Part shown: positions 4,321-61,248 of the stretch, piece after piece
Layout of the letters: each line of letters begins with the position of its first letter
Position numbering within the stretch: the stretch's first letter is position 1
Assembly (NCBI GenBank): GCA_963843735.1
Contig: CAWJLN010000008.1
Span: 164,818-228,817 of the forward strand
Source: an uncultured Gammaproteobacteria bacterium
GTDB lineage: Bacteria; Pseudomonadota; Gammaproteobacteria; JAKDMP01
Direction: 5' to 3'
DNA length: 64,000 nt
Notes under the pieces: generated by a model
Seen by the model: only the letters and a program-made list of their open reading frames with translations
What the model was told of the DNA's origin: nothing
Database searches by the model: none
Program-made: the position numbers and the translations under genes

Positions 4321-4574
4321 ATTGTACTTGCGCTGATCGAAAGAACGAAAGCGGGTAAAACCCCGAAATCGGCTCTATACTTCTGCGTGTTATACGCTGC
4401 GGGTGACGAACCACGGCAAGCTGGTGGGCCGAGTACGTGTTCAAGAACGGCGATCTCGTGAGCATCCGCGAGATCAAAGACAAGCAATAGACCGATTTTG
4501 CTTCTCCGCGCCACGGCGTCGCGGCAGGGGCGGGCGCTACAATAATCCGTTGCCGCACTCGCGACGGAGCGTTC

Positions 4575-7760: not shown

Positions 7761-7762
7761 TC

Positions 7763-14414: not shown

Positions 14415-14425
14415 GTAACACGTTA

Positions 14426-15370: not shown

Positions 15371-15429
15371 AATCAGGGACTCGGGATTCGAAGAATCGCG
15401 AGCAAGCTCGCTCCTACAGTGTCTAGGGT

Positions 15430-16233
15430 TTAACGCCTAACGCCCTTCGGCAGATACGGGGCGAGCGTTTTGCCGAGTGCGGCGTGCACGCGCGGGCTGC
15501 CGGCGAGAATGTCGCCGCCGGCGACCGGCCAGCCGGGTCTTCCTGAGAAATCTCCGAACAGACCACCTGCTTCTTCAATCAGGAGGCAGCCCGCGGCGAT
15601 GTCCCAGGGCTTGAGCGCGAGTTCGAAGAAGCCGTCGAGGCGACCGGCCGCGATCCAGGCCAGATCGAGCGCCGCCGAACCCGCGCGACGCAGACCGCCC
15701 GATTGCTCGATCACGGTGCGCAGCATGGTGAGATAGGCGTCGAGGTCGGTGAAATCGCGGAACGGAAAGCCGGTGCCGATGAGCGCGTCCTTGAGTCCCG
15801 GTCGCGGCGTGACGCGGATGCGCCGGTCGTTCAGAAACGCGCCCCGGCCGTGACTCGCCACATACATTTCCTCGCGCAACGGATCGTACACGACGCCGTG
15901 CACAAGCCGGCCGCATTCGGCGATCGCGATGGAAACCGAAAAGGCGGGGAAGCCGTGCAGGTAATTCGTGGTGCCGTCCAGCGGATCAATGATCCACTCA
16001 TAGTCGCTTTTGCCGCCGCTGATGCCGCTTTCCTCGGCGAGGATGGCATGCTCGGGATGCGCCGTGCGGATGATCTCGATAATGGCCTGTTCGGATTTCC
16101 GATCAATTTCGGAGACATAATCGTTGTGCTGCTTAAGCTCCACGTGCAGGACGTCGAGACGATTCATGCCGCGCAGCACGATGGCGCCGCCGGCGCGCGC
16201 GGCGCTCATGGCAATGTTGAGAAGTGGATCCAC
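15430..16233 (-). CDS. suhB: inositol monophosphatase family protein
   Basis: ORF track gives a 416-aa read-through. Trimmed to GTG start at 16233 (MDPLLNIAMSAARAGG...) giving 267 aa; motifs WIIDPLDGTTNYLHGFP and metal-binding DAA residues typical of SuhB/IMPase. Confidence 0.85.
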   Translation of the reverse strand: MDPLLNIAMSAARAGGAIVLRGMNRLDVLHVELKQHNDYVSEIDRKSEQAIIEIIRTAHPEHAILAEESGISGGKSDYEWIIDPLDGTTNYLHGFPAFSVSIAIAECGRLVHGVVYDPLREEMYVASHGRGAFLNDRRIRVTPRPGLKDALIGTGFPFRDFTDLDAYLTMLRTVIEQSGGLRRAGSAALDLAWIAAGRLDGFFELALKPWDIAAGCLLIEEAGGLFGDFSGRPGWPVAGGDILAGSPRVHAALGKTLAPYLPKGVRR

Positions 16234-44865: not shown

Positions 44866-46311
44866 TCAACCTGCGTCGATGAGCCAGCGCCAAACTACCG
44901 CCAACGCTTCCACATCGGCGCGCTGATAGGCGCACGCTCGCGCCAGTGCCTCAGAATCATTCTCCATCCGCCACGCCTGATAATCGCCCCAGGCTTGCTG
45001 TGCGTTCGACCCGTCCGGCCAGCGATAGCCGAAATAGTTCGCCACTGATTTGATGCTGCGGCTGCGCACGGGCAGCATGACCTTCCGCTTGAAGGTCTGG
45101 AGCAGATCGTGCATTCGCGGCTGCAACACGGCGACCGCATCGGCGGGTGCGGTGCTACGCAGGCGCTCCTGCTCAAAGCCGCTCCAGTGATAGACCCGCC
45201 CGTCGAGCCGCTCGGCGGCCTTCGCTACCAAGCGCCAGCCCGCGTCGCTGTCCGGGATGATGAGGATGGCGCGGCCATCGGGCAAGGTCAACGCTTCGCC
45301 GTCGAAATAAGCCGAGACCACCGCCACCCGCACCTGCCCGTCGCCCTCTGACCAGCCGAAGCACCAGGGACGCCCCACCGCATCGCCGGTCATCTCGGTT
45401 TCGATGTCCAGCATCACCCCCGGCGGCAGATCGTCTATGACTTGATCGTCACGCCGGATCGGCTCCTGCTGTTGATGCGCGCGGGCGCTGTCGAGGTAGG
45501 CGCGGGCTTTGGCCGCCCCAACTCCGTCGAACTTCCGCAGTTCCGCCGCCGACAGCGCCAGAACATCGGCCAATGTCCTTATACCGTCTCGCTGGAAATG
45601 CGCCCAGGTCTTGCGCGTCAAATCCGGCAGCAGCGTGATGTCGCCCGCCGCCTCGGCGATCTGCTGGCAAGCGGTGTGCCAGCCGCACTGCTCGCAGTGG
45701 GACGCCAGAAAGATTGGCGGCGCGTCGGCCAGCGCCAGCGTCTCGGCGACCTGCTGGAACGCCCCGAACAGCCACGCTTCGTCGAACTCATGCGTCAGTC
45801 GGCGCAGCGGATAGCCGTCCGCATCCCGCCCCAGCCAAAATTCCCCGGCGACCGGCTCCGGCTGCACCGCTTGCAGCAGCCACAGGTAAAAATCGAGCTG
45901 GAGGCGGTCGGCGGGCTGTACCTGCGCCCGCTGCTTGATCTCGACCGGCACGTACCAGCCGCGACCGGGCACGCGCACCAATCGATCCACCCGCCCACGC
46001 GCCCGCACCGGCGGATCGAGCGGGACAGTGCGTTCCAGCGCGGCATTGCCGATGGCGTCCGCGCCCTGCGCCATCAACTCATGCGTGACCTGCGCCGCTT
46101 CCGCCCAGGAAGTCGTCGTAATGCGCCGCTGGGCACCCGCCGCAAACTGCACGACCTGCTCGTGCGCCAGCCCGGCCATTTGTGCCCAGGATGGCGGCGG
46201 CTCGTGATAGTCGGCGCGCTCGCCATGCTGATCAAGCCAGATGCGCCGCTGGCACTGATCGAGCGCCCGCAGCGTGTAGGCGGTGATGGTCGGCAGCCTG
46301 TCTCCGGTCAT
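44866..46311 (-). CDS. TM0106-type RecB-family nuclease: Cas4-like PD-(D/E)xK domain with four Cys, helix-hairpin-helix, and C-terminal RNase H-like (YprB-type) exonuclease domain
   Basis: 481 aa; N-terminal LRALDQCQRRIWLD (first Cys), catalytic GRVDRLVRV...YVPVEIKQ, Fe-S Cys triad HCEQCGWHTAC; HhH LADVLALSAAELRKFDGVGAAKA; acidic DIETEMTGD of an RNase H-like fold; start overlaps the stop of the upstream STAND gene (ATGA). Confidence 0.7.
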   Translation of the reverse strand: MTGDRLPTITAYTLRALDQCQRRIWLDQHGERADYHEPPPSWAQMAGLAHEQVVQFAAGAQRRITTTSWAEAAQVTHELMAQGADAIGNAALERTVPLDPPVRARGRVDRLVRVPGRGWYVPVEIKQRAQVQPADRLQLDFYLWLLQAVQPEPVAGEFWLGRDADGYPLRRLTHEFDEAWLFGAFQQVAETLALADAPPIFLASHCEQCGWHTACQQIAEAAGDITLLPDLTRKTWAHFQRDGIRTLADVLALSAAELRKFDGVGAAKARAYLDSARAHQQQEPIRRDDQVIDDLPPGVMLDIETEMTGDAVGRPWCFGWSEGDGQVRVAVVSAYFDGEALTLPDGRAILIIPDSDAGWRLVAKAAERLDGRVYHWSGFEQERLRSTAPADAVAVLQPRMHDLLQTFKRKVMLPVRSRSIKSVANYFGYRWPDGSNAQQAWGDYQAWRMENDSEALARACAYQRADVEALAVVWRWLIDAG

Positions 46312-49300
46312 TGATCGAGCGCCGCCAGCACCTCGTCGGCATCGACCTGCCCCCAGTGATAACCCATCGCCGCGCTGTCGCTTTTGGCGCGGCTGGCTTC
46401 GCTGCGCGCCTGATCCTTGTCGCTCGCGCGCAGATGCGCCCAGGCCAGCCCGACCCGGATGTCGGCTTCGTAGATGCGGAAGCCGCCGGCGAGCGCGTAG
46501 CCGAGCACTTCGTTGAGGTCGTTGAAAGCGCTGGCCGGGTCGTTCATGAACCGGGCGTACCAGCGACCGCGCGCCAGCAGCGCCTCGATCAGCACATCAC
46601 GCTGCTGGATGCCGTGGGCGAGGCTGAGCGCCTGATCGTAATGGGCGCGGGCGGAGTCATGATCCCCGGCATCAGCGTCCAGATCGCCCAGCACGCGGTG
46701 ACTGCCGCTGAGATCGCCTTTCCAGCCATTGCGCTCGCAGATAGTCAGGTTGGCCTCGCTGACGCGGCGGGCATAGGCGGCATCCCCGGCGCGGCGCTGA
46801 TGCTCGGCGTGGAAAATACCACGCAGACCGTAAAGGTACTGCTTGTTCGGGTCGATCTTGCGTTCCAGCGCCTCGGCGCGGGCGAATTCAGCGGTGGCTT
46901 CGGCCAGCCCACCGCGCAGGTGCAGCGCACGGGCCAGAGTCGTCCGCGCGTCTCTCTCAGACGTATAGCGAGGGTTTTCATGCATTGTTAACTTGGCTAA
47001 CGCCGCCGCTACGCGCGTTGCTACTCCAGCGCCACGCGCGAGCAACTCCAGCGCCACGCGCGCTACTTCTACGCCCCGGTCGAGCTCGCCAAGGTAGATG
47101 TAGAGCGAGGTAAGGATCAGGTAGTCGATACTACCGTTGAACCAATCATCAGCACTAGCATTGACCTGGATAACACGCTCAATAAATGGCACGGCTGCAC
47201 GCAACCGCCCCAGGCTCATCAGGCACAAGCCGATGGCGCTAAGGATGATGCGCTGGTTGCCGGGACTGCTGACCGCCGGGTCGTGACTCAGGTCGCCACC
47301 AGGGAAGAATTCGGTCATCAGCGCAAGATCCGTCTCCCACGCGCCGAGAGCATAGACGAGTACACCTCGCTGACCCAGATAAATCCGTTTCCTATAGACT
47401 TGCCATGCTTCGTCATACGCTCCAGCATGGCACAGATGATGCACGATCTCGATGTAGGGCGCGAGGTCGTCCAGCGTCGGGAAGCGCGGCAGGCTTTGCT
47501 TGGCGTCGGCCTGATAGTAGTCGGCGATCTGACGGTGGGCGGCGGCGCTGCTGCCGCTTTCCAGCCGCTCGGCGTAGTGCGCCCGGATCAGCGGGTGGGC
47601 GCTGTAGGCGGCAGCGCCGTCCTGCGTCACCCAGCGCGAATCAGGCGGCGCGCGATCAGGCCCGCGACCAGCGCGGCGAAAGCGGCATCGTCCAGCCCGG
47701 TCAGCGGCGCGTTGAGGGCGGTGGCGTCGGTGGCGGTGCGGAACACTTTGCCGAAGGCAGCTTTCGCGCACGGGCAGGCGGAAGGCGCTGAAGATCAGCA
47801 GGAAGGCGCGTTCGGCTGCGCTCAGATGCTCGTCGTAGCGGCGCAGCACCCGCGCCACCCGCTCGTAATGGTCGTCACTCGCCTGCGGTGCGGGCAGGTC
47901 GCCGACGTGCGCCACGTCGCCGCCGAAACGCTCAGCCAGATATGATCCGAGCAGGCTCAAGGTCAGCGCGTGGCCGTCCCAATCGCGCACCACCCGATCC
48001 AGCGCTGCGTCGCTGCCGGTCACGCCGACCCGCCGCAGCAAGTCGCGCCCGTCTGCTTCACTCAGGCGGGTCACGTCGCGCTGGCGATAGGTGGTGTGCG
48101 CCAGCAGATCGACCAGCGGCGCGCGGCTGGTGATCAGGCAGACCGAGTCGTGAAAGGGCGAGGCGAACAAGTCGAGGAAGTCGCGCAGCGCCTCGCTGAT
48201 GATCAGGCCATAATCGTCGCCGGTGTCGTGCTGCATGACCTCGAAGCCGTCCAGCACGAACACGCAGCTCTTGGTGCTCAACAGCCCGGCCAGCAAGCCC
48301 GCCCGCGCTGAGGCCGAGGTCACAGTCTTCGCCAGCGCTGCGCCGCCCAGGTAGGTCAGCGCCGCCTCGAAGAATTCGTCGCTGCTGCGCTGCTCGTAGA
48401 ACGACCACCAGAAGACCGCCGTCGGGCGATTCGATCCGCTGAGGATGGCATCGAGCGCTTTGCGGGCGAGGCTGGTCTTGCCCTCGCCGCCGAAGCCGAT
48501 CAGCCCGGTCACGCGGACGGCGGAGTCGGCGTAGTCAGCGGCGATGCTCGCCAGCAAATCGGCGCGCCCGACCCACTCCGGCAGCACGTCCGGCGCGCGG
48601 CTGAGGTCGAAGGCGGCAGGCGTCGGCGCAGCCTTGACCTGCTGCTGCTGCTGGTCGGTTAAGCGTGGCGTGGTGCTTTCCTGGCGCGGATATGCCTCAT
48701 ACAGTGTCAAACTGAGTGGCACGAGGCTCAGCACCCGCGCGTTGACGCCGAAGGCCGTGTCGCGATCTTTGCTGCTCGCCAGCGGATACCAGGTTTGGGA
48801 GATGAGGCCAACGACAACATTGTTTTCCACATCCAGCACCGCCGCGCCGCTCATCCCTTTATCGATGTCGTCCGATTTCAGTTGCAGTGGTTCGGTCAGC
48901 CAGTTTTCGTCTTCCGGCGCGAAAGTCGAGCCGACGATGACCCCTGAAGCGTAGTTGATCTGGAATTTGTCGAGGCGACGATAGCCCCAACTCTGAAAAC
49001 GGTCACCGTCCGCTTCATCCCCGCTGCCGAGGTGCGCATACTTGCCCGGCTCGACTGGCGATAGACCCGCCGTCAATTCCAGCAGCACGATGTCGTCGTC
49101 ATGGTCAGGCAGGCAGCCCACAACGCGCGCCTCGCGCCGTTTTTCCTCCTCGCGGCGTGCTTGCGGAAAATAAACGCGGATGGTCTGCCCGATGCAGTCG
49201 CGCGGGTGACTCTCGCCATCAATGGCGTTGCGGACGACATGAGCACAGGTCGCAATCTTCCCATCGTCGGAGACAACAACTCCTGTACCGATGATGGCCT

Positions 49301-49370
49301 TGTCCGCGTTGCAGATACCAATGGTGAACTCACGCAACCGCTGGTTGATGACATGCCTATCCTGGCTCAT
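46308..49370 (-). CDS. three-module protein: N-terminal trypsin-like serine protease, central STAND/NB-ARC-type P-loop NTPase, C-terminal TPR/alpha-solenoid repeats (Avs/NLR-like architecture)
   Basis: 1020 aa intact; protease triad candidates TCAHVV (His), DIVLLEL (Asp), GMSGAAV (Ser); Walker A GFGGEGKTSLA and Walker B CVFVLDGFE; winged-helix/arm region and about 350 aa of helical repeats at the C-terminus. Confidence 0.8.
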   Translation of the reverse strand: MSQDRHVINQRLREFTIGICNADKAIIGTGVVVSDDGKIATCAHVVRNAIDGESHPRDCIGQTIRVYFPQARREEEKRREARVVGCLPDHDDDIVLLELTAGLSPVEPGKYAHLGSGDEADGDRFQSWGYRRLDKFQINYASGVIVGSTFAPEDENWLTEPLQLKSDDIDKGMSGAAVLDVENNVVVGLISQTWYPLASSKDRDTAFGVNARVLSLVPLSLTLYEAYPRQESTTPRLTDQQQQQVKAAPTPAAFDLSRAPDVLPEWVGRADLLASIAADYADSAVRVTGLIGFGGEGKTSLARKALDAILSGSNRPTAVFWWSFYEQRSSDEFFEAALTYLGGAALAKTVTSASARAGLLAGLLSTKSCVFVLDGFEVMQHDTGDDYGLIISEALRDFLDLFASPFHDSVCLITSRAPLVDLLAHTTYRQRDVTRLSEADGRDLLRRVGVTGSDAALDRVVRDWDGHALTLSLLGSYLAERFGGDVAHVGDLPAPQASDDHYERVARVLRRYDEHLSAAERAFLLIFSAFRLPVRESCLRQSVPHRHRRHRPQRAADRAGRCRFRRAGRGPDRAPPDSRWVTQDGAAAYSAHPLIRAHYAERLESGSSAAAHRQIADYYQADAKQSLPRFPTLDDLAPYIEIVHHLCHAGAYDEAWQVYRKRIYLGQRGVLVYALGAWETDLALMTEFFPGGDLSHDPAVSSPGNQRIILSAIGLCLMSLGRLRAAVPFIERVIQVNASADDWFNGSIDYLILTSLYIYLGELDRGVEVARVALELLARGAGVATRVAAALAKLTMHENPRYTSERDARTTLARALHLRGGLAEATAEFARAEALERKIDPNKQYLYGLRGIFHAEHQRRAGDAAYARRVSEANLTICERNGWKGDLSGSHRVLGDLDADAGDHDSARAHYDQALSLAHGIQQRDVLIEALLARGRWYARFMNDPASAFNDLNEVLGYALAGGFRIYEADIRVGLAWAHLRASDKDQARSEASRAKSDSAAMGYHWGQVDADEVLAALDQ

Positions 49371-49714
49371 GGCTTGCCCCAGGTCAGTTTGACGGTGATG
49401 GTCGCCTCGGCACTGGTCGTCACCACCGCATCCAAACCGGCATTGAACTTGATGCCGAACTCGACCTCTGCGCCCGAAAGCGACTGCGGGTTGTCGGCGT
49501 CGTGCAGATCGTTGACCAGCATTTCGGTTTTGCGCGCGATTTTGTAGATGGTGTGGAAGGCTTCGAACAGCAGGTCGTCGGAAAGCTGCTTGACGACCTC
49601 CTGCGCTCGTCCGCTGCGTGTAGTTTCCTGCAAGCCGCCTTGCTCGGCAGACGGTTTGGCAGTGATCTCGACCTGGATCGGGCGGTTGTCATCAGTGAAG
49701 TGACGGGCATTCAT
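49367..49714 (-). CDS. small protein (115 aa) translationally coupled to the protease-STAND gene; function unknown
   Basis: Stop overlaps the STAND gene ATG (ATGA); mixed charge, predicted helical (MNARHFTDDNRPIQVEITAKPSAEQGG...); no motif I can name with confidence. Confidence 0.5.
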   Translation of the reverse strand: MNARHFTDDNRPIQVEITAKPSAEQGGLQETTRSGRAQEVVKQLSDDLLFEAFHTIYKIARKTEMLVNDLHDADNPQSLSGAEVEFGIKFNAGLDAVVTTSAEATITVKLTWGKP

Positions 49715-49908
49715 CAGGCGCTCCTGGAGGTGAGTATTAAGCTGATATCATCTATAGTATAGAAGGATTTGGTGAGCTCAGCTCAGAAAACGGTTTTCCA
49801 ATGATGCCGTCATTCGATCTTCTATCCGCAGCGCATGATTCAGTTCCAGCCCCTACCCCACCTATCATTCGCCAGAAAACCCATACAGTTTTCCCCCAAT
49901 CAGCCAAT

Positions 49909-50631
49909 TTACTTCGAGATGACTTCCTCGACCAGTGCCGCCAGCCCACTAGCACTGGGATCATCATCGACCAGCCACTCCCGCGCCAGCTCCTCACGCC
50001 CCGCAAATTCCCGTTCGGCATAGTCGGGAAAGCGCAGATACAGCCAATGGCGCATAACGCCATACAGGCGGCGCTCCTGGGTGGCCTCATCGTCTGGATA
50101 CCACTCCTCCAGCAGCTCGCAGAGCTTGACCCGCAGATCACCCGGCAGTTCCTGCCGAGCCGCCTCGTGGCAAAGCATCTGCGACAGTTCCTCGAATTCC
50201 AGCCGTTCGGCAAACGGCAGCTCAAACGGCAGTACCCGCGTACAGTCTGCCGCTAGGACGATGCGTTCGGTTTTCGTGTTCAAGTCGATGGCCTGAAAAG
50301 TATGCGGGTCGATTGACTCACCCAGCACCAGGAGCTTCCCCTCAGCATCGCGCACCAGATGCCCGGAACCAACTTCGTGGAAGAACCGATCCAATAACTC
50401 AACTTTGATCTGAAGCGCCACTTCAATTTGTGACGGGGTTAACGTGCTCAAGGGGATCAGCTGGACATGCTCACGCTCGACACCGTAGACGCTGTGATCG
50501 AGGAATAAGGTCTCGTACCACCCACTCACCGCTAAATCTTCAATGACCGCCGGTTGGTCGATCACCAGGCCCGATTCTGGGTCGTGGTAGCGGACATGAA
50601 CGACATCATAAATCAGAGGACGACGTGACAT
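49909..50631 (-). CDS. hypothetical protein (240 aa), same strand and about 195 bp upstream of the small-protein/STAND/nuclease operon
   Basis: Long ORF with a coherent hydrophobic pattern; acidic C-terminus; no recognised domain. Confidence 0.4.
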   Translation of the reverse strand: MSRRPLIYDVVHVRYHDPESGLVIDQPAVIEDLAVSGWYETLFLDHSVYGVEREHVQLIPLSTLTPSQIEVALQIKVELLDRFFHEVGSGHLVRDAEGKLLVLGESIDPHTFQAIDLNTKTERIVLAADCTRVLPFELPFAERLEFEELSQMLCHEAARQELPGDLRVKLCELLEEWYPDDEATQERRLYGVMRHWLYLRFPDYAEREFAGREELAREWLVDDDPSASGLAALVEEVISK

Positions 50632-51005
50632 CCGATTGAACTCCTACTCTATTTAGGCACTCAGGTCATGATCTTCCTCTCTACTCCAGCTCACCCGACG
50701 AGTTTTCCATTAAGCAGCGGTTGAACTTTCTGGGCAACTTCCCTCAGAATCATTCTGGGGAAACCGCTGGGGAAAATCCATCAACAGCCGCCCCAAAGGC
50801 CATTTTAAGCCCCAAATCGGCTCGCAGGTGGAATTACACATGCAGGAGGCTTTACGGCGCTTCTAGCCCCGATTTTGTGCGTTTCTGACCCCTTCTACTT
50901 GCCAGTTTCCTCGCTTACTAGTAGAATAGAGTTGCTATTTGAACCGATCTGAAATGTCCTGAACCGACCCCCTTTTCCGGTTTCCTATTCCCAGGATATT
51001 TCTCC

Positions 51006-51587
51006 ATGACTCAATCCCTCCCGCTCACTAACAGTTCCAAGCTCGCCCTCGTCGATGACGACCTGTTCGATGACTTATCTCGCTATCGCTGGCGGCTCAA
51101 CAGCTACGGCTATGTTGTGCGTTCGTATCGCACCGACGCTGGTCGGAACACCTATGTCTGCCTTCATCGCCAGATCATGAACGCTCAGCACGGTCAATAC
51201 ATTGACCACAGGAACAACGATAAGTTGAACAATGTCCGCGCCAATCTCCGCTTCTGCTCCCAGAGCCAGAACCTCGCCAATCGACGCCTCCACCAGAACA
51301 ACTCCTCCGGCTTCAAAGGCGTGATTTTCCAGCACGGGAAATGGCACGCCCGCATCCAAAAAGACCGCCGTGACCTCCATCTCGGCTTCTACGCCGATCT
51401 CCGCTGTGCCGCTCTCGCCTACGACTGTGCGGCCAAACTGCTCTACGCCGATTTCGCTCGCCTCAATCTCCCCGACTGCCCTACCCCACCCGACATCGAG
51501 GCCAAGGTGCTGCATGTACCTCACCCGCCACGCCGCCACGCTGAGCGTGCGGTTTCATCACTTCCATCACCGCTGTATACAAACTGA
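51006..51587 (+). CDS. HNH endonuclease with AP2-type DNA-binding domain (free-standing homing-endonuclease-like)
   Basis: 193 aa; HNH_3-like YVCLHRQIMNAQHGQYIDHRNNDKLNNVRANLR and AP2 domain SSGFKGVIFQHGKWHARIQKDRRDLHLGFYADLRCAALAYDCAAKLLYADFARLN. Confidence 0.7.
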   Translation: MTQSLPLTNSSKLALVDDDLFDDLSRYRWRLNSYGYVVRSYRTDAGRNTYVCLHRQIMNAQHGQYIDHRNNDKLNNVRANLRFCSQSQNLANRRLHQNNSSGFKGVIFQHGKWHARIQKDRRDLHLGFYADLRCAALAYDCAAKLLYADFARLNLPDCPTPPDIEAKVLHVPHPPRRHAERAVSSLPSPLYTN

Positions 51588-51664
51588 TCGAGCGCATCCA
51601 AAAGGCGGGCAACAAACCTGTTCGTATAGCCTATATCAGTGATTTCGATCCCGCAGGTGCGTCG

Positions 51665-52225
51665 ATGCCGCTGGCCTTCTCCCGCAAGCTCGAATTCATG
51701 CTGGTCAAGTACCTCGGCGATAAGGTCGATGTGCGGCTCAAGCAGATTGCCCTCAATCAGCAGCAGGTCGAGCAGTACGACATCGTGCGCGTCCCGATCA
51801 AGGAGACTGAGCTGCGCGCCGGTCGCTTTGAGGCTACTCATGGTGGCGTGGGCGGTGCCGAGCTGGACGCTCTCGAAGCGCTGCACCCTGGCACCCTGGC
51901 GGCGATGGTCGAGAATTTCTTCGAGGACTACTACAGCCACGATGCTGCCCGCTTCGCCGAACGGCAGGCCCGCGCGCTGCGCCAAGACGTTCAGGAACAG
52001 CTTGAGGCTATCCGCGAGGAATATGCCGAACAGTTCGACGCCCTGAAAGCCGCGCTGGATGAGATGCGCGCTGTGAAGCCAAGCCAGCGCTATACCGTCG
52101 AGGCGTTCAAGGCGGAAGTCGAAGAAACCGACGACTGGCTGTTCGACAGCAGCCGGGACTATTTCGAGCAGCTAAAGTCGTATCAGGCGCACAAGAATGG
52201 GCACAACCTGGCGGACGCCCGATGA
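51665..52225 (+). CDS. hypothetical protein (186 aa), possibly phage-related
   Basis: ATG 51665 with AGGTG RBS; acidic and coiled-coil rich; no recognised domain. Confidence 0.4.
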   Translation: MPLAFSRKLEFMLVKYLGDKVDVRLKQIALNQQQVEQYDIVRVPIKETELRAGRFEATHGGVGGAELDALEALHPGTLAAMVENFFEDYYSHDAARFAERQARALRQDVQEQLEAIREEYAEQFDALKAALDEMRAVKPSQRYTVEAFKAEVEETDDWLFDSSRDYFEQLKSYQAHKNGHNLADAR

Positions 52226-52243
52226 GCCCGCGTTGATTCAGTT

Positions 52244-53470
52244 TCAGGCAGCGCCCTCCCCTACCCGTTCCAGCCATTCTTCCTTGAGCAGACAGCAAAT
52301 CTCCACTGGCTGCCCGTACACGTCCCCCAGCACCCGCTTGATCAGCCGAGCCAGCCGGTAGCGCAGCAGATCGCGCGCGTAAGCCTGAAAAGCGACCAGC
52401 ACGAAAGTGTGGGTGTCTGGCTCGAAATCGACCAGCACTGCGGGTTGGAGTGCCTGATAGAACGAGCCAGAGTCCATTTGTAGTTGCAGTTGATGAGCCG
52501 CCCACAGCCAGGCGTCCTTCACCGTTTCCCCGGCTTCGCTGAAGCGCGTCCAGGGGATATTCAACCGTTCCGTTGTCGGCAGTGGGGTTTCTTGGACAGT
52601 TTCCGGCGCTTCGTCCAACTCCGTCTCGGTGAATATCGCCCAGGCTTGCGGGTTCGAGGCCGCTGGCGCGGCGGCCACCAACTCGTTTGCCAGCGCCCGG
52701 ACGACATAGTTCCAACTGTGCCCCCGCGGCACGCAGCGGTCGAGGACTTCGCGGACTTGGATTGCTCCCAGCCGGTCAAGCTGTGTCCGTAACAGCGGCT
52801 GAATGCTCTTCTTTAAATGGCCGAAGCGTTTTTCGTAAGTGGCAAATATCTGAAAATCGGAATCATCGTCCGGGTGGAGGGTGGGCTCAGGTTGAGACTG
52901 ATCTTCTGAAATGGATTCTGATGAAGTAGTCTCTGTATCCGTAGAAGACCCTACGCAATGTTCAGTATCCATACCGGGCAATGTTAAGGATCGATCCTTA
53001 ACATTGTTGGGGATCGATCCTTGACATTGTTCAGGATCGCCCTGCCCGAGCAGCCGTTGGATCGTTTCCAGAAAAACGTCGCGGTTGACCCGGTAATGGA
53101 CAGTCGGCGCGCCGGTCTTGTGCGCCTTCTTGACCACCGTTTCGATGCCCAGGTCATGCAGCGTGAACTGCGTCCGTTTGACACGCGGATCGCCCTGTAC
53201 GATGCGGCGCACCTGCGCCTCGCTCAGGCCGAGTTCGGCTTGCCAATCGGCATAGCTTTTGTAGAACCAGCCCTCCGGGTCTTGGGTGCGTTCCGACCAG
53301 TAGAGAATCTGGTTGAGCAGCATGGCGGCCAGATGATCATCGTCGAACAATTTGAGAAACGGTTTGGGGCACACACTGACGGTATTGTCACTGTAGGACT
53401 CGCCGAGCAGCGCTAACACTGCTTTGCGGAAACTAGCGCGGGGTTTGGGGTGTGGTAAAGTCATTTGCAT
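52244..53470 (-). CDS. putative replication initiator (N-terminal winged-helix-like DNA-binding region, acidic Ser/Thr-rich linker, C-terminal DnaD/DnaB_2-like domain)
   Basis: 408 aa; the C-terminal third has the YE..FG...L...W pattern of DnaD-like replisome-organiser domains (ATYEKRFGHLKKSIQPLLRTQLDRLGAIQVREVLDRCVPRGHSWNYVVRAL); the linker coincides with the DNA repeats at 52955-53035. Confidence 0.5.
   Translation of the reverse strand: MQMTLPHPKPRASFRKAVLALLGESYSDNTVSVCPKPFLKLFDDDHLAAMLLNQILYWSERTQDPEGWFYKSYADWQAELGLSEAQVRRIVQGDPRVKRTQFTLHDLGIETVVKKAHKTGAPTVHYRVNRDVFLETIQRLLGQGDPEQCQGSIPNNVKDRSLTLPGMDTEHCVGSSTDTETTSSESISEDQSQPEPTLHPDDDSDFQIFATYEKRFGHLKKSIQPLLRTQLDRLGAIQVREVLDRCVPRGHSWNYVVRALANELVAAAPAASNPQAWAIFTETELDEAPETVQETPLPTTERLNIPWTRFSEAGETVKDAWLWAAHQLQLQMDSGSFYQALQPAVLVDFEPDTHTFVLVAFQAYARDLLRYRLARLIKRVLGDVYGQPVEICCLLKEEWLERVGEGAA
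52955..53035. repeat. iteron-like palindromic repeats inside the replication-initiator coding sequence (candidate origin)
   Basis: caatgttcagtatcc / caatgttaaggatcgatccttaacattgtt (perfect 26-bp palindrome aatgttaaggatc|gatccttaacatt at 52980-53005) / ggggatcgatccttgacattgttcaggatcg; motif (c)aatgt(t/c)aag(g)atc occurs about 4 times in both orientations. Confidence 0.5.
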
Positions 53471-54013
53471 CGATCCTTCAATCGAGTATAAGTGAGACGC
53501 CTGTTCATCGGCGCTGATCGACCAGATCAGCCCACTACCAGGGCATCAGTGCTTGCTCCTACCCAAACAGATCGATGTAATGGGTTGAAAAAAAGGAAAA
53601 TTAAACCTTAGGCTCGCAGGGCTTGCCTTTTTCAGGCATTTACGTTACCATTTGAGGTAACAAAGCCTCGGGCTATTTGCCCTGCGGGCCGCATATACAA
53701 TCTGTAGGGCAAAAGTGGCTTCGTTGCTTGGTCGGCATGTGGAAGCCTCTTTTTGCGTTAGGGTGCTGCACTGTTTCTAAGTGTCCACCATCGACACTGC
53801 TACATAATTCGGCTACATAAATCACTCCTCAAATAAACAGCCCCAAAGGCGGAAAGCTGCCGTTTGTGGCCGATCTTCAGTCCCAAGAAGTCATTCTCAA
53901 AACGGCGTTGGTAGTCATTACTAATCTGATCACCAACGTCTAAAACTATACCCGAAAACGGGCGATTTAAGCAAGCAATTCGATCCTGCCCTACTCGGCC
54001 TCTGGCGATCAGC

Positions 54014-54454
54014 CTAATCGAAAAAGCTGCTGGCATAGTTCTTCAAGAAGTTGTCGGCGACAGTCTTGGCGCTGGCTTTGCTGCTGCCGGTGATGACCAC
54101 GCCCGGCTCATCGCTGGGCGCTGAGTGCATCCGGGGCGCACCTAGTGGCGGCTGGATCGGAACATTGCCTTGTGCCAGCAGCAGCGCTTCCAGGCGGCTG
54201 ATTTGTTCCTGTAGCCGCTGCTCAGTCGGCACGGGAACGGGCTGTAGGGCTTCGCGTACCCAGGGGAATAACTCGAACAAAACCACGGTCTGCCCGGCGC
54301 GCAGGTCGCAAATCAGGCGAATACCGTCACGGATAGTTTTCGCAAATAAGCGTTCTTGTTTCAAAACTTCAATCTGCTCTATCAAAGCGTCTTCTTCTGT
54401 TTTAGTTGTGTCCAACCAAAACATGAACTTAAGTCGGAATCCCTGTTTGGACAT
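54014..54454 (-). CDS. hypothetical protein (about 146 aa from the second Met), divergent from the MerR-like gene
   Basis: ORF 54014..54514; internal start MSKQGFRLKFMFWLDTT... is more plausible; no recognised domain. Confidence 0.3.
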   Translation of the reverse strand: MSKQGFRLKFMFWLDTTKTEEDALIEQIEVLKQERLFAKTIRDGIRLICDLRAGQTVVLFELFPWVREALQPVPVPTEQRLQEQISRLEALLLAQGNVPIQPPLGAPRMHSAPSDEPGVVITGSSKASAKTVADNFLKNYASSFFD

Positions 54455-54590
54455 TTGCGATACTTTCAGTCTAGGCTTACACTTAGTGCAACTGTCACTT
54501 AGTGATAGTAACATAAAATAGGCGTTTATCCAAGCTGATGATCATCGTAGCATTAAACTAGTTTCATTTGGGCTTTGAGTTTACATGGAT

Positions 54591-54849
54591 GAGCGCTCAC
54601 TGGACGTTAAATGTGACGGTAAAGACCAAGTAGGGCTAACTCATCCAGGAATTGATGCTTGGTGGAGCCAAAATCGGAGGCTAATGGACTTAGAGATAGC
54701 GAAAACGAGCGCTCACTGGACATCAAATGTGACAGCCTTTCCAATGCCCACCAGCTTGTGCTACAACGCAATTCTCAATTCATGTTAAATTAGAGCTTCT
54801 TGGACTTAGAGATATGCTGAGTGAGCGCTCACTGGACGTAAAATTTGGC
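54591..54849. repeat. three about 27-bp direct repeats about 116 bp apart in the divergent intergenic region (candidate operators / regulator binding sites)
   Basis: gagcgctcactggacgttaaatgtgac (54591-54617), gagcgctcactggacatcaaatgtgac (54707-54733), gagcgctcactggacgtaaaatttggc (54823-54849); copies 2 and 3 are each preceded by ggacttagagata (54686, 54802); the gagcgctc core is palindromic. Confidence 0.6.
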
Positions 54850-54865
54850 AACCATCTCTTAAACA

Positions 54866-55429
54866 GTGGGTAATTTCCAAATGGCATATACAACCAATGA
54901 CTTGAAAACGTTGTTTAACGTTGCTCCAGAAACAATTCGGAATTGGACGCGAGAGTTTGCTCGCCACTTATCGGTTACGGCTAATCCTGAGAATGGCCGT
55001 ACTCGGATTTACAATGAGGAAGACCTCAAAATTATCGATCTCGTTCATCAGATGCGTGATCAGGGCCATCCTTATGAAGAAATTCATGCTGCGCTGGACG
55101 CAGGGCAGCGTGGAGCAGGCCCAGGCGTATCCCCTGAGGAACTCAAATCGATAGTCACAGGGGAGACTGAACGGCAGCTTTCCCTCGAAATTCAAATGCT
55201 GCGCCGTCAGCTTGCTATTGCGGACGAACGACTTCAGGAACTGGATGCGCTGCGTGAGCAGAATATCCGCCTGGATGCCGAGAAAGAAGCGGAAAAACGT
55301 CGCACTGATGAAATCAGCCTTCGGTTGAATGAGACTCAAGAGAAACTTGAAGCGCTTCTACGGGAGGTTGGACGCGCTTATCACGAGGGTTATATGGATG
55401 CTCTGAAAGAGAGCAAAGATCAAGATTGA
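54866..55429 (+). CDS. MerR-family helix-turn-helix regulator with C-terminal coiled coil
   Basis: 187 aa; N-terminal YTTNDLKTLFNVAPETIRNWTREF (MerR-type HTH) followed by a heptad-rich region (QLSLEIQMLRRQLAIADERLQELDALREQNIRL...). Confidence 0.65.
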   Translation: MGNFQMAYTTNDLKTLFNVAPETIRNWTREFARHLSVTANPENGRTRIYNEEDLKIIDLVHQMRDQGHPYEEIHAALDAGQRGAGPGVSPEELKSIVTGETERQLSLEIQMLRRQLAIADERLQELDALREQNIRLDAEKEAEKRRTDEISLRLNETQEKLEALLREVGRAYHEGYMDALKESKDQD

Positions 55430-55599
55430 GGTTCCTTGAGCCAGTTCTATCCAACTAGAGCTGAACGTGTGCCATGTCAGAATGTATCCGAAGCTTCGAC
55501 AGACTTTTCGCGGGAAATGTGGCACGATAGATGGTATCTGGTTCATCTGACAAGTTTGGTGCTAGACAGTGGAGTTGGTGTTCACTCTCTAATTTGGAG

Positions 55600-55905
55600 T
55601 CATAACATGAGTGCACTTGAGAGAGAGAGATTATTGAGAAGTTTCACCAGTTGGACAAAGATGCGCAGCAGCGAGTACGAGCGCTGATTGATCAGGAAGC
55701 AGAAGGCGGGCAGGGCGTCCGCGCTGTCGGGATCATCCACCAGCGAGGCGAAAATCACCGCCCGCGCCGCCACCAACGGTCGCCGCGCCCACCACAGATG
55801 CAGCGTGGACGGATGCCCGTGCCGGATGGATTTCTCGCGGGCGCTGGCGACATCGATCGCTTCCAGCGGCAGCGCGACTTCGATCAGCTTTTTACGAGTG
55901 GTCAT
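55600..55905 (-). pseudogene. N-terminal fragment (about 100 aa) of a DUF1156-family protein (putative defence-associated methyltransferase); body of the gene missing
   Basis: [59 protein letters not shown] is the conserved DUF1156 N-terminus; similarity decays after about 65 aa and the ORF stops at 55600, whereas full-length members are several hundred aa longer. Confidence 0.55.
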
Positions 55906-56348
55906 GAGGCGTTTTCCGGTGAAACTAGGGTAATTTGGTCATTAAAACGTTTGAGGTCGGCTGTATTCAGGGTCAATAGGGTGTCGATGCCGTATACCAG
56001 CATGGTCGCGACGATGTTGGTGTCATGCACCTGCTTGCCCGCCGTCGGATAGGTTTTCAGGAGTTCCAGTAATTTGACACGCACAGCGACGGTTTCGTCG
56101 GCAATCTGAAACAGCGGCGTGATTTTGTTGATTTCATCGACCACTTCCCCCATCGTCAGCGGTATTTTGAGCGTTTTCGGATGCGTCGCTTGCACCATAA
56201 ATTCGCGGATGACCTGCCCATTGATCCACAGTTCGGTATTTTCGCGCAGCATTCGCCGGAACAGGGTGTCACATTCGGCGTGCAGGTTCATATCGGTGAA
56301 GACCGTGCGCAGCAAAATATTGGTATCGACAAAGGCTTTAACGGCCAT
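55902..56348 (-). CDS. vapC: PIN-domain ribonuclease toxin VapC
   Basis: Start at [13 protein letters not shown] (Met 15 of ORF 55902..56390); PIN acidic residues (D in VDTN, E in ...HAECD..., D in VHDTN...). Confidence 0.8.
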
Positions 56349-56568
56349 CGTCGTCGTACCAATCCTCACGGCGCACCGAAGGCGCTTCATTCATCGGATT
56401 ACTCAGCGTCGCCGCGTCCAGCAGTTGCAATTTTTCATCGACGGTCAGCGGGCGCTGTTCGGCACGGCGTGCCAGCACCCGAACAATCAGGGTCTTTTGT
56501 TGCTCTTCTGGGAGCTGCTCAACCAGTTCAATCAGTTGCTCGTAGTCAATTTTCAACTGCACAGCCAT
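56338..56568 (-). CDS. vapB: VapB-type antitoxin (small DNA-binding protein)
   Basis: 76 aa; overlaps the vapC start by 11 nt; typical toxin-antitoxin gene organisation. Confidence 0.55.
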   Translation of the reverse strand: MAVQLKIDYEQLIELVEQLPEEQQKTLIVRVLARRAEQRPLTVDEKLQLLDAATLSNPMNEAPSVRREDWYDDDGR

Positions 56569-59500
56569 TATCGTGGCTCCTCGCTCATTGCCAGTAGGTC
56601 ACCTAGATTATAGTTCACGCTGGTCACATTCAAGTCGGGTTCGCGGCTGAACGGTTGGCGCACATACCGCGCCGGACGCGCCGCCTGTCCCTCAATCTCC
56701 ACCAGCGCCAGGATAAACTGCTCTTGAGTATTGAACGCCGTCAAAATCTCGTTGCGCGTCACTGTGACGGTATGCGCATCCGGCGCGCCGCCCCTTCACC
56801 TCGATGAAGCGCAGCCGCCCACTGCGCCCGTCGCGGCTCTCAATGTCATAGCCGATCTTCGCGCCGCTCACATCGCGCGGATCATTCCCCAGCGCGATCT
56901 CAGCTTCCGTCACCGCCCGCATGGCGATCTGCTCCGTGATGCGAGTGTCCAGAGTTGCTGCTAATCCGTCACTATCCGTCACTAGCCCGATGGGGACGAT
57001 CAGCGCCCCACCCATGATGGTTGGCGGCGCGGCGGTGATTTGCCGCTCCTGCTCAAGCTGGATTTTGCGCTGCTTCAGCCGCTCGGCCAGCCGATCCGCC
57101 CGTTCCTGCGCCCGCCCGGAATTGAGCTTGGCGTTAGGCTTGCCTGCTTGTTCCTGCGCCCGTAGTTCGCCTGCGCGGAAGTCCCAGTAGTTGATTTCTT
57201 TGGTCAGCCGCTCCTGCACCGCCGCCTCAATTTTGGCAATCAGTTCCAGCCGCCGCTGGCGTACCCGCTCCAAGTGCGGCGGCACCAGTTGCTCAATGGC
57301 GTAGGCTGTCGCCTGCCGTTCTAACGCCGTCCCCTTCAGCCAGTCCCGTTCCAATACCGGACGCAGCAGAGCGATTTCTTCGGCAGTTGCCGGTCGGTAG
57401 TCGAGATAGAGTGCGCCCCCGCCCGCTCGCACTTTTCCCTCGGCATCAATCTCCACAAAATGCACCTCCCGCGAGATGATTCTTCTCTCAAAACCGGGGG
57501 TTGGCGCTGCATCCCGGATGGCTTGTTCCAGGTAGAACAGGGCGCGGGGCTGGTCGCCTGCGTCCGTCTCATCGATCAGGATAGCACCTTGTTGCAGCAC
57601 GTCCCGGAATCGTTCTAGCAGCAGCCCAATGGTCGCATCGAGCAGGGGATGACCAGGGCAGATAAAGGCCGCAGGCGGCAGGTTCAACTGGTTGATCAGG
57701 GATTTCTCAAAACAGATACGCTCATACCGGGTGCTGATCGCGCCCAAACCGCGCTCTTTAGCCCAGTGGCGAATGCTGGCTGGGACGTTGTGGATGGCGT
57801 AGCGCCCGCTCTCGCGCTCATAGATTGTGCCGCCAAGCTGCTCGAAAGCTTGCAGGAAAAATGCTTTGATGTAGTAGGGCTGCAAACGCCGGGCAGAAGC
57901 GCGCTCCATCTCCTCGCGGATACGAATAATCTGGCTCACATCGAGCTGCGTTTGTACCAGCGATTCCCGTTCAAGCAGGTCGCGTACATGTTCCCGATCC
58001 ATAACATTGTCAACCACCTGCTCCAGGCGCGCCCGGATGGCTGGATCATTGCCATAACGCACTGCTTCTACCAACAGCTTGCGCAGCGATGTTTCCTGAA
58101 ACAGCTTGCCCAATACATCGAACACCTGCCCATCGAGGGCATGACGCTCGGCTTCCAATTTCTTCAAGAGCCGCTGGTAAACGCCGCCTTCACGCGTTTC
58201 GCCTGCTACCAGATTCCAGAGATGGCAAATCTCAGTCTGCCCAATCCGGTGAATCCGCCCGAAACGTTGTTCCAGTCGGTTGGGATTCCAAGGTAGGTCA
58301 TAGTTGACCATCAGATGAGCGCGCTGAAGATTGATACCTTCGCCAGCGGCATCCGTTGCCAGCAGGATGAATACCTCCGGGTCGTTGCGGAATTGATCTT
58401 CGATCCGACGACGTTCGTCACGTGGTACGCCACCATGAATGCAGACAATCGGTTCGGTTCGACCGAGCAGGGTGGTCAGCCGTTCCCGCAGATAATTGAG
58501 CGTATCGCGATGTTCGGTGAAAATTACCAGTTTGCGCAGCCCTTGAATGGGATCGCGCATTTCTGGAGTGTCTTGCAGCAAACGGAGTAACTCGTTCCAC
58601 TTTCGATCCGTACCACTTCGTCTTAACTGAAGTGCCTGCTGCTCCAGCGTTCGTAAACTGGTAATTTCCGCTTGTAGTTCGGTGATGGTTCGGGCAGCGG
58701 TCGCGCTGTCCACGAGTTCCATCTCAACTGCCTCGACTTCAGCATCGGGAGCATCGTCTATATCATCCCAGTAATCTTCATCCAGAACGGGATATTCAGT
58801 GAGGGGCAGTTCGCGGCTGTGTTGAACATCTTTTAAGCGTTTTTCGAGCCGTTCTTTCCACCGCTTGAGCGATTGGTAAATGGCTTCTGGGGAGGAAGCT
58901 AACCGTCGTTGCAAAACGGTCAAGGCAAAGCCGATAGTACCTTTGCGGCCATCGTTTTCAAGTTGATCAGCCCGGTTAAACTCTTCCCGCACATAATCCG
59001 TAACAGCCTCGTAGAGAACCGCCTCTTCGGAGGAGGGGGCATGGTTGACGGTATAAGCTCGGCGTTCCGGGAACAGCGGCTTACCATCGAATTTGAGCAG
59101 TTTCTCCTTGACCATTCGACGCATTAAGTCGGAGACATCCACCCGATGAACTCCATCCCGGAACCGGCCTTCAAATCGATCTGCGTCGAGCAGAGCCAGA
59201 AAAAGCTGAAAAATCTTCTTCTTTGCCATTGTGGGGCGTGGCAGTCATCAGCAGCAGGTGGCGAGTGAGAGTCCCCAGTAATTTGCCCAGCTTGTAGCGT
59301 TTCGTCTCTTTCAGTTCGCCGCCAAAGAAGGAGGCCGATAACTTGTGGGCTTCGTCACACACCACTAAATCCCAATCAGTTGCTTGCAGACGGGTTTGCA
59401 AATCTTCGCTGAGGCTGACCTGATCCAGGCGGACGATAAGCTGGTCATATTCGGCGAAGGGATTACCACTGCGGGCCGTCTCCGCCATTTCCCGGCTGAG

Positions 59501-60094
59501 AATCTTGAAGTCGAGTTGGAATTTAGTCCATAGCTCGTCCTGCCATTGTTCCGTCAGGTTGCCTGGAGCGCAGATCAAACAGCGCTTCACATCTCCCCGA
59601 ACGATCAACTCACGGATCAGCAGCCCGGCCATGATCGTTTTCCCAGCACCGGGATCATCGGCCAACAGATAACGCAGTGGTTGGCGTGTGAGCATCTCAT
59701 CGTAGACAGCTGTGATCTGATGGGGGAGGGGTTCGATCAAGGAAGTGTGGACAGCCAGCAAAGGATCGAAGAGGTGAGCCAAGTGAATCCGATAGGCTTC
59801 CGACACAAGGCGTAGAAGCGCGCCGTCCGCGCTGAAAGCCCAACGCCGTTCGTTGGTGACAATTTCGAGCAGCGGCTCATCGCTGCGGTAGACGAGCTGT
59901 GAGCCGAGTTGCCCATCAGCACGCTTGAAAATGACTTCGACGGCAGTCGCGCCATGCTGTTGCGCATCAATCAAAGTCACAGTTTGCTGGGGGACGAGGC
60001 CACGAACCTGAATGCCACGTTGTAAATCTTCGAGTTTAATCATTTGAGGGTTCAGTAGATCAAGTAATGCCAACCTGAAAATAGCTATGTACAA
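56568..60094 (-). pseudogene. SNF2-family helicase with C-terminal DUF3883-like (restriction-endonuclease-like) domain; at least two frameshifts
   Basis: N-terminal part (ORF 59171..60094) has DEXH helicase motifs DDPGAGKT, DEAHK, TATPHNG. Middle/C part (ORF 56692..59229) has HELICc motifs (LLATDAAGEGINLQ, NYDLPWNPNRLEQRFGRIHRIGQ) and ...GYDIESRDGRSGRLRFIEVKG. The tail continues in the frame of ORF 56568..56762 (TVTRNEILTAFNTQEQFILALVEIEGQA). Frameshift 1 is in an A5/T5 run at about 59,209-59,215; frameshift 2 at about 56,775-56,795. Confidence 0.75.
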
Positions 60095-60500
60095 TCAATA
60101 GTTATGAAAATTACTTTACTCTCATGAGAGTAGCTTGTCTAGACGCGATCTCTTAAGGGTGGTTTACCTAAATGAATGGGTGTTTCGGTGACTTCACAGC
60201 CACGCCATTTCCGCATTTTCCTCTCTTCGCTTGGCGCTATGGCCGAGGAGCGCCTACTGGCATTGCAAGGATGTGAACCCGACGAATTTCCTCTGCCGAC
60301 TGAGAATCTTCTCGTTATTATGGAAGCCACAGAGCTGAGGTAGACAGAAAAGCACCTGGAGAATTCAGTAGAGGAAACGCAACTTGCTCATCGTTTTAGT
60401 TGACTGGAACCAACAGCACCGGAATAGGTTCCAGCGATCCGCAAGCAAGAAGGGGAGGGGGCGTCAGGCTTATTTCAACCGGCAAGAAGGTGAGATAGGC

Positions 60501-61049
60501 TTACTCTGGGAACATATCTCGGACAGCCATTTTGAAGCCAGGCAGCACCTCGCCGCCGTCGATGACTTCATCGACACCCATTATTTCAACTGGCTGATCA
60601 GGGGCATACACTTCGACGGTTTGGCGCTGAGGACGAACCAGCCAGACGAGCACATCTGCTTCGGCATAGATCGCTAGTTTCCGCCGGATGGCTGGTTCCC
60701 GGTCGGTAGGGGAGACTACCTCGACCACCGGATCAGGGGCTAGAGGGTTATAGCCTTCACGGGCAAGATGATCCTGTCGCGCCGCAGCGACGAAGGCTAC
60801 ATCGGGCGACAGTTTCCGACCTACAACGAGGTAACCGGCACCTTCCCCGGTAACGCGCCCCAACTTGCGGGAGCGAACGAAAGCCAACAAGGCAGCAGCG
60901 ATCACAATCGCAATTTCGGAGCAAAAGGCGTTGGAAGGCACTTCGATGATCTCCCCGTCGATGAATTCAAACCGCAAATCGGCGTTTTCGGGCAAGGCGA
61001 TATAGTCATCAAAGTCCTGAGCGCTCACACCGGTCTTTTGGACAGCCAT
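60501..61049 (-). CDS. Uma2-family (DUF820) PD-(D/E)xK endonuclease
   Basis: 182 aa; FEFIDGEIIEVPSNAFCSEIA ... YLVVGRKLSPDVAFV ... VVEVVSPTD (catalytic D..E.K-like arrangement typical of Uma2). Confidence 0.75.
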   Translation of the reverse strand: MAVQKTGVSAQDFDDYIALPENADLRFEFIDGEIIEVPSNAFCSEIAIVIAAALLAFVRSRKLGRVTGEGAGYLVVGRKLSPDVAFVAAARQDHLAREGYNPLAPDPVVEVVSPTDREPAIRRKLAIYAEADVLVWLVRPQRQTVEVYAPDQPVEIMGVDEVIDGGEVLPGFKMAVRDMFPE

Positions 61050-61248
61050 GTTTCGTATGACCTATCTACTCCATATCGAGTATAGCACGTCAAATCAGGC
61101 GCGCAGCGTGAGCGGAAGTCCGTCAAGGTGAATGCGGTATCACTGGGGAACAACCCGCCCAAAAGCATCCATCATACCAATGTCGAGGCTTTCGCGATCC
61201 GTGTGCAGCATATAATACTCGCGGCGTTTATCGGCATGATGAAGTGTC

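Follow-up and report, generated by a model that had tools for sequence, protein, structure and literature searches.

The window analysed here, a stretch of 64,000 nucleotides of contig CAWJLN010000008.1 (GenBank assembly GCA_963843735.1, positions 164,818 to 228,817 of the forward strand), encodes at positions 44866-46311 a 481-residue protein of the TM0106 family of RecB-like putative nucleases (TIGR03491; COG2251). The gene is the last of three co-directional genes, preceded by a small Trypco1 protein and a large STAND NTPase with a trypsin-like protease domain, and a sequence-only reading had proposed it to be a DNA-degrading effector or a nucleic-acid-processing partner of this NTPase. Our analysis confirms the proposed architecture of the protein but not its functional coupling to STAND. 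The nuclease is probably a stand-alone, vertically inherited TM0106 enzyme that is independent of a separate Trypco1-STAND module encoded upstream. It is an ordinary addition to a family that is catalogued yet uncharacterised. The gene and its domains are located as follows:

44866-46311, minus strand: gene of the TM0106-family RecB-like nuclease, 481 amino acids, with TIGR03491 and Pfam domains above their cutoffs
45658-46287, minus strand: N-terminal Cas4/AddB-like PD-(D/E)xK nuclease domain (amino acids 9-218), from motif residues and fold matches
45457-45633, minus strand: helix-hairpin-helix (HhH) DNA-binding segment (amino acids 227-285), from a sub-threshold HHH_5 match and family-profile matches
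44878-45429, minus strand: C-terminal RNase H-like (PolB-type) DEDDy 3'-5' exonuclease domain (amino acids 295-478), from RNase_H_2, catalytic residues and fold

Family membership is given by the NCBIfam model TIGR03491 (TM0106 family RecB-like putative nuclease), which matches the 481-residue protein with 161.3 bits (E = 3.7e-47) at a curated cutoff of 97.45 bits. Pfam identifies PDDEXK_1 at amino acids 55-216 (35.5 bits, cutoff 22), Cas_Cas4 at amino acids 105-216 (28.5 bits, cutoff 22.7) and RNase_H_2 (PF13482) at amino acids 369-477 (43.6 bits, cutoff 22), while the match of HHH_5 to amino acids 243-271 stays below threshold (18.7 bits, cutoff 27). The catalytic residues of the PD-(D/E)xK domain are D109, at the start of DRLVRV, and E124-I-K126, followed by a RecB-type QxxxY motif (Q138-LDF-Y142). 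The same domain holds four cysteines in the pattern C...CxxCx5C, i.e. C20 and H-C206-EQ-C209-GWHTA-C215, which form a putative Fe-S ligand set. On the exonuclease side D302 and E304 are part of a DIETE motif at amino acids 302-306, and the remaining DEDDy residues are E380, located in an HWxxF(D/E) motif, and Y462xxxD466. An alignment with 25 homologs of 33-79% identity shows that the catalytic and cysteine residues are invariant or near-invariant: D109, E124-I-K126 and Q138/Y142 are kept in at least 24 of the 25 homologs, C20, C206 and C215 are invariant and C209 is found in 24. The exonuclease residues D302, E304, Y462 and D466 are conserved, and position 380 alternates between D and E.

Searching PDB sequences with the TM0106 family profile returns the HhH segment as the sole match, where amino acids 227-285 align with the HhH domains of RAD51/RadA (N-terminal), NusA and the RNA polymerase alpha C-terminal domain (best E = 7e-5). 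Neither nuclease domain was found in this search, so that a fold comparison was needed to identify both. The AlphaFold2 model, built on the homolog alignment, has a mean pLDDT of 92.1 and a pTM of 0.82. In Foldseek the N-terminal half of the model is closest to Cas4 SSO0001 (4ic1), the nuclease domains of AdnAB, Dna2, EXO5 and MGME1, and the C-terminal half to the exonuclease domains of family-B DNA polymerases, RNase AS and the T7 polymerase exonuclease. The architecture that had been read from the letters is thus borne out: every named motif of the RecB/Cas4-type core (DRLVRV...EIK, C...CxxC...C) is present and conserved, the C-terminal DIETE-type domain has the RNase_H_2 match, the DEDDy residues and the PolB exonuclease fold, and the helix-hairpin-helix, although sub-threshold in Pfam, is recovered by the family profile.

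Compared with other members of the TM0106 family (DUF83/PDDEXK_1 plus PF13482) the window protein shares the full-length architecture and all catalytic and cysteine motifs. Nothing essential differs, and the protein, an ortholog from Anaerolineae, shares 36-79% identity with the other members from Chloroflexota. Some COG2251 proteins carry superfamily 1 helicase/AAA extensions (cf. the 1118-residue plasmid homolog described below), which are missing in the window protein. The combination of DUF83/PD-(D/E)xK with PF13482 has been described as COG2251 by Majorek et al. (NAR 2014), who placed its RNase H-like domain among the PolB-related 3'-5' exonucleases. With CRISPR-associated Cas4 the nuclease has the PD-(D/E)xK core and the C...CxxCx5C cysteine pattern in common, but it contains the additional HhH and exonuclease domains. 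The comparison with family and Cas4 models, suggested in the sequence-only reading, holds for TIGR03491 and for Pfam Cas_Cas4 but not for the Cas4 equivalog TIGR00372, which scores 28.6 bits and thus remains below its cutoff of 65. No cas genes and no CRISPR array were found in the 64-kb window. PADLOC models return only weak Cas4 matches for the nuclease and, for the STAND protein, only protease-domain matches to RT-Protease models, without any match at the level of a system.

The fold is also common to the nuclease domains of AddB/AdnAB, Dna2, EXO5 and MGME1, all of which except MGME1 share the Fe-S staple as well. From this likeness we infer that the window nuclease processes 5' tails. In contrast to these enzymes, it has no helicase motor, neither within the protein nor in a conserved neighbour, and is fused to a 3'-5' exonuclease. 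PolB-type DEDDy exonucleases and the RNase_H_2 proteins of the YprB/COG3359 type share the motifs DxE...(H)WxxF(D/E)...YxxxD and the PolB fold matches with the C-terminal domain. Unlike PolB-type exonucleases, the window protein lacks a polymerase domain, and its exonuclease is joined to a Cas4-like nuclease. An Fe-S nuclease for 5' tails joined to a 3'-5' exonuclease in one protein predicts a helicase-free DNA-end-trimming enzyme. In such an enzyme the HhH segment would bind the backbone of a DNA end or flap in a non-specific manner, the Fe-S PD-(D/E)xK nuclease would thread and cut 5' single-stranded tails, as Cas4, EXO5, Dna2 and AddB do, and 3' tails would be left to the DEDDy domain for trimming. 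The whole protein may then act as a helicase-independent processor of DNA ends of both polarities, with a conceivable role in repair, recombination or the clearing of linear DNA.

All 57 detectable homologs of the nuclease belong to Chloroflexota. Scanning a single genome for each GTDB species yields 45 nuclease loci, all from Anaerolineae or Chloroflexota, with identities of 36-49%. The family as a whole is much larger, as its profile matches 284 cluster representatives (50% identity) at E ≤ 1e-30 and 1984 at E ≤ 1e-10. A cyanobacterial branch accounts for 1381 matches, including complete chromosomes of Crocosphaera, Gloeothece and Rippkaea, and in some cyanobacterial groups the gene is near-ubiquitous. 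In the three cyanobacterial loci inspected it is a solitary gene amid unrelated Tic22, dnaA, transporter and regulator genes. This wide distribution of TM0106/COG2251, set against its lack of experimental characterisation, constitutes the residual interest of the family.

On plasmids the family is rare. One distant homolog of 1118 amino acids is encoded on plasmid pA of Phenylobacterium sp. LH3H17 (locus L130, positions 1510-8243), where it ends a co-directional gene run comprising multiubiquitin, E2/UBC, ThiF (E1), DUF6527 and a hypothetical gene; this ubiquitin-like conflict system might use a TM0106 nuclease. Another distant plasmid homolog adjoins an ADP-ribosylglycohydrolase gene. A phage or viral origin was also considered and rejected, as the nuclease has zero matches among INPHARED phages and in IMG/VR and the STAND protein has none in IMG/VR.

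The two genes upstream of the nuclease are:

46308-49370, minus strand: trypsin-like protease, NB-ARC STAND NTPase and TPR protein of 1020 amino acids, from Trypsin_2, a weak NB-ARC match and TPRs
49367-49714, minus strand: Trypco1 (Pepco-type) small protein of 115 amino acids, from Pfam Trypco1 (46.9 bits, cutoff 24.6) and NCBIfam CU044_2847

In the STAND protein Trypsin_2 scores 58.6 bits against a cutoff of 27.6, and the triad H44, D93 and S174 as well as the Walker A motif GGEGK298 (G292-K298) are invariant in 20 homologs. At least 670 STAND homologs from several phyla are found at E ≤ 1e-10, and those at about 46-56% identity are labelled Chloroflexi, Herpetosiphonaceae, candidate division LCP-89 and a Promethearchaeota bin. 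Such a spread across phyla is the pattern of a horizontally mobile gene. A Trypco1-like open reading frame (ORF) lies directly upstream of STAND in 46 of the 65 testable loci, while downstream of STAND no third gene is conserved, the largest recurrent family being present in 5 loci and of housekeeping type (glycogen phosphorylase, LepA-like). Thus, the conserved unit is a two-gene Trypco1-STAND cassette, in which the protease-STAND protein has Trypco1 as its conserved partner and, in all likelihood, as its effector.

Kaur et al. (eLife 2020) introduced Trypco1 and Trypco2 as domains that co-occur with trypsin in NTP-dependent conflict systems, and a 2025 preprint (10.1101/2025.11.14.688446) renamed them Pepco. 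According to the preprint, a trypsin-Avs4 protein cleaves a Streptomyces Pepco whose gene lies directly upstream of its own; this Pepco forms β-barrels of 9-10 subunits and is required for toxicity, and a precisely truncated form is toxic alone. The authors propose a protease-activated membrane pore. The Trypco1 and trypsin-NB-ARC-TPR pair of the window, known here from its sequence, fits such Pepco-trypsin-STAND/Avs modules with an intact H/D/S triad, but its STAND protein is missed by every Avs model of PADLOC v2. The studied Streptomyces Pepco is activated by the loss of a charged C-terminal tail of about 2 kDa, whereas the window Trypco1 has no obvious long C-terminal tail. Based on this difference the cleavage site may differ in the Trypco1 subfamily. 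In the window protein the chain ends right behind the last predicted strand (...ATITVKLTWGKP), and the N-terminal region is long and polar. By analogy, the upstream pair would be a horizontally mobile module in which the trypsin-STAND sensor responds to its trigger by cleaving, and thereby activating, the Trypco1/Pepco effector. As STAND has in Trypco1 a conserved effector whose mechanism is supported by experiment, it does not need the nuclease.

In the window the genes follow each other in the order Trypco1, trypsin-NB-ARC-TPR and nuclease, each overlapping its neighbour by 4 bp, and the nuclease is indeed physically the last gene of the operon, as had been stated before. We analysed whether this arrangement is kept elsewhere in both directions. 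In the forward direction, tblastn with STAND (whole and by domain), Trypco1 and the 240-residue ORF upstream of Trypco1 (orf240) against the nuclease loci, covering up to 10 kb on each side, detects no homolog of any of the three in 45 species-level loci. Clustering of the flanking ORFs reveals no recurrent neighbour of the nuclease either, the maximum being a generic ABC transporter in 7 of 47 loci. In one of these loci (L003) the nuclease overlaps a pyroglutamyl peptidase gene upstream and an aldo-keto reductase gene downstream, in metabolic surroundings. In the reverse direction, 80 metagenomic loci of STAND homologs were searched by tblastn and with the family hidden Markov model, and none contains a TM0106-type nuclease; 36 of these loci extend at least 1.5 kb downstream of the complete gene and 36 at least 1.9 kb upstream. 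The window nuclease is therefore not a component of the Pepco modules represented by these 80 loci. The same 4-bp start overlap is seen in 6 other nuclease loci, where the upstream genes are unrelated (Peptidase_C15/pyroglutamyl peptidase, a glycosidase-like gene, an 87-residue ORF). Thus, the overlap itself says little about function.

Adjacency of nuclease and module is seen only in the window and in one further contig, L001, with differing gene orders. We compared L001 and a second close relative, L002, with the window by blastn. The L001 nuclease shares 76% amino acid identity with that of the window, and the genes follow as nuclease, Trypco1 and STAND, which is a circular permutation of the window order. 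At the DNA level the identity is 82.4% for the nuclease and 81.7-83.7% for the module. The L002 nuclease is 79% identical; it is preceded by the N-terminal 51 codons of orf240 and then by 207 unrelated bases, and the remainder of orf240, Trypco1 and STAND (window ~46297-50478) are missing. The first 51 codons of orf240 thus mark the left edge of the segment that is absent from L002, and the nuclease has been retained where the module was lost. The most fitting reading is that the window and L001 inherited their adjacency as parts of a very small clade. The L001 permutation would arise, without selection for linkage, if different copies were lost after a tandem duplication.

The L001 locus contains further STAND-like genes. 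Upstream of the nuclease, positions 4443-7268 encode a 941-residue DUF4062, P-loop and TPR protein, and downstream of the Trypco1-STAND pair, positions 12580-16083 encode a 1167-residue P-loop protein with a weak nSTAND6 match; the position of the nuclease amid these genes indicates that the locus is plastic. The L001 nuclease (P0003, positions 7620-9041) carries C209Y and a non-homologous stretch at amino acids ~29-60. In L002 (P0002, positions 553-1992) the gene call begins in the wrong frame, and an intact N-terminus (SESERLPIITAYTLRALDQCQRRIWLD) is present in another frame. These damaged-looking calls reflect either indel errors of the metagenomes or decay.

Taken together, the likely explanation of these results is a nuclease gene passed on vertically in Anaerolineae and working apart from the genes upstream, which probably shares a transcript with the module only through an accident of insertion. 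The apparent operon of a STAND sensor and a nuclease effector would then be two unrelated units side by side, and a false entry in the defence catalogue is avoided. Several points weigh on the other side. The stop codon of STAND overlaps the start codon of the nuclease (ATGA, 4 bp), an arrangement that would imply co-transcription and possibly translational coupling of the two genes. The nuclease loci of the genome scan were found through two peptide patterns, and their sampling is incomplete. In the window and L001 the nuclease and the module have diverged to a similar degree and run in the same direction, such that this small clade has inherited their adjacency, which could serve a function. 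The distant plasmid homologs adjoin genes of conflict type, namely the E1/E2/multiubiquitin operon and the ADP-ribosylglycohydrolase. Finally, the end-processing activity proposed above derives from domain homology, and a literature search for TM0106/TIGR03491 found no experimental paper on any member, and the matches to "TM0106" were unrelated corrosion standards.

The chemistry combined in the protein would also suit an autonomous defence nuclease, which could for example degrade linear invading DNA from both ends while remaining uncoupled from the adjoining immune genes. Such a role would account for its presence in defence or variable islands. Cas4-like and DEDD exonuclease activities are of the kind used in CRISPR prespacer trimming. 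The gene contexts that would agree with such a role, i.e. the border of the window nuclease with a low-GC island harbouring HNH, PIN, SNF2/NOV_C and Uma2 genes, the three STAND-like NTPases around the L001 nuclease and the conflict-type neighbours on the two plasmids, are however not those of the family in general, as most copies from Anaerolineae and cyanobacteria reside amid metabolic or housekeeping genes and the distribution looks vertical within classes. The PADLOC result, with nothing beyond the weak Cas4 matches, does not speak for a defence role, and the absence from phage and viral collections neither supports nor excludes it. We therefore regard an autonomous defence function as unlikely.

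Quite improbable is the proposal of the sequence-only reading, according to which the nuclease is a DNA-degrading effector or nucleic-acid-processing partner of the STAND NTPase, encoded in the same operon and switched on by oligomerisation of the sensor. The proposal draws on the three co-directional genes with their 4-bp overlaps, on the lack of a predicted terminator between STAND and nuclease and on the adjacency kept in the closest relative, L001. Some Avs proteins have nuclease effectors of the PD-(D/E)xK type, and in an Avs4 chimera the function of the Pepco-protease pair could be taken over by a PD-DExK domain (10.1101/2025.11.14.688446). In the window, however, STAND already has its own protease and, in Trypco1, a conserved effector that accompanies it in 46 of 65 loci, and linkage to the nuclease fails in both directions (0/45 and 0/80). 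L002 keeps the nuclease without the module, the gene orders of window and L001 differ, the start overlap recurs with unrelated genes, and no PADLOC system model links nuclease and STAND. The sequence-only reading had itself held that a conserved gene unrelated to STAND in related genomes would speak against it, and such a gene is found in the 45 species genomes, none with STAND or Trypco1 nearby.

A more restricted form of coupling would be that in the window/L001 clade the Trypco1-trypsin-STAND module has captured a resident TM0106 nuclease and uses it as a second output arm, either protease-activated or brought in by the oligomerised sensor. Sensor activation would in this case trigger both membrane permeabilisation and the degradation of DNA ends from both polarities. 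We give such a capture only a slender chance. A zymogen-type role, in which the latent nuclease would be a second substrate for the STAND trypsin domain and be activated by site-specific cleavage in this clade only, is highly improbable: protease-linked effectors are diverse and modular, with metallo-β-lactamase (MBL)-fold hydrolases and α/β-hydrolases activated in this way in protease-effector modules, and the adjacency is inherited in the clade, but co-occurrence is not seen beyond the two contigs, the window nuclease has no clade-specific insertion or tail compared with solitary orthologs, and C209Y and the garbled N-terminal region of the L001 copy suggest relaxed constraint or assembly error rather than specialisation.

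The preferred reading of an independent enzyme places the gene between two kinds of surroundings. Downstream, kdpD and kdpE converge on the nuclease. Upstream of orf240 the G+C content drops from about 0.61-0.66 in the flanks to 0.50-0.57 (window ~50000-61100), and this low-GC stretch resembles a variable or defence island, such that the nuclease is located at the border between core genes (kdpDE) and the variable island. Scans for Rfam families, tRNAs and CRISPR arrays gave nothing in the region, and no tRNA or Rfam element is found at the border of the island. The genes called upstream of the module are:

49909-50631, minus strand: orf240, the 240-residue ORF upstream of Trypco1, with no Pfam, NCBIfam or PADLOC match
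51006-51587: HNH endonuclease, in the low-GC stretch
54866-55429: MerR, in the low-GC stretch
55902-56390: PIN domain protein, in the low-GC stretch
56692-59229, minus strand: Helicase_C and NOV_C part, overlapping the SNF2/ResIII ORF
59171-60094, minus strand: N-terminal part of an SNF2/ResIII helicase, in the low-GC stretch
60501-61049: Uma2, in the low-GC stretch

A role of orf240 as a component of the system was rejected, as it has none of the above matches and none of the 80 STAND loci has a homolog of it nearby. The SNF2 and NOV_C ORFs (56692-60094) resemble one gene split by a frameshift and would then be the second place in the contig that points to indel errors or gene decay. The first is found within the STAND gene itself:

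47630-47761, minus strand: out-of-frame stretch of about 44 codons in the STAND ORF, between the NB-ARC and TPR regions, from an alternative-frame match

The called frame of this stretch gives an Arg-rich peptide (SCLRQSVPHRHRRHRPQRAADRAGRC...) unlike the family consensus, whereas the alternative frame gives AAFGKVFRTATDATALNAPLTGLDDAAFAALVAGLIARRLIR, in agreement with the L001 ortholog as well as the consensus. This pattern implies two compensating indels, either as assembly errors or as a real lesion.

At the junction of STAND and nuclease neither an internal promoter nor a terminator is predicted, and the counts equal the expectation from shuffled sequence. The junction is bracketed by a 21-nt imperfect direct repeat with 18 of 21 matches (46253-46273 and 46309-46329), which encodes ...ALDQ at the C-terminus of STAND and ...RALDQC at the N-terminus of the nuclease; the L001 STAND protein runs 9 amino acids past ALD. 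The repeat could be due to chance or represent microhomology involved in a rearrangement. A further repeat, a 22-nt tandem repeat of 2.5 copies with 88% matches, is located at 47007-47062 in the TPR-coding part of the STAND gene.

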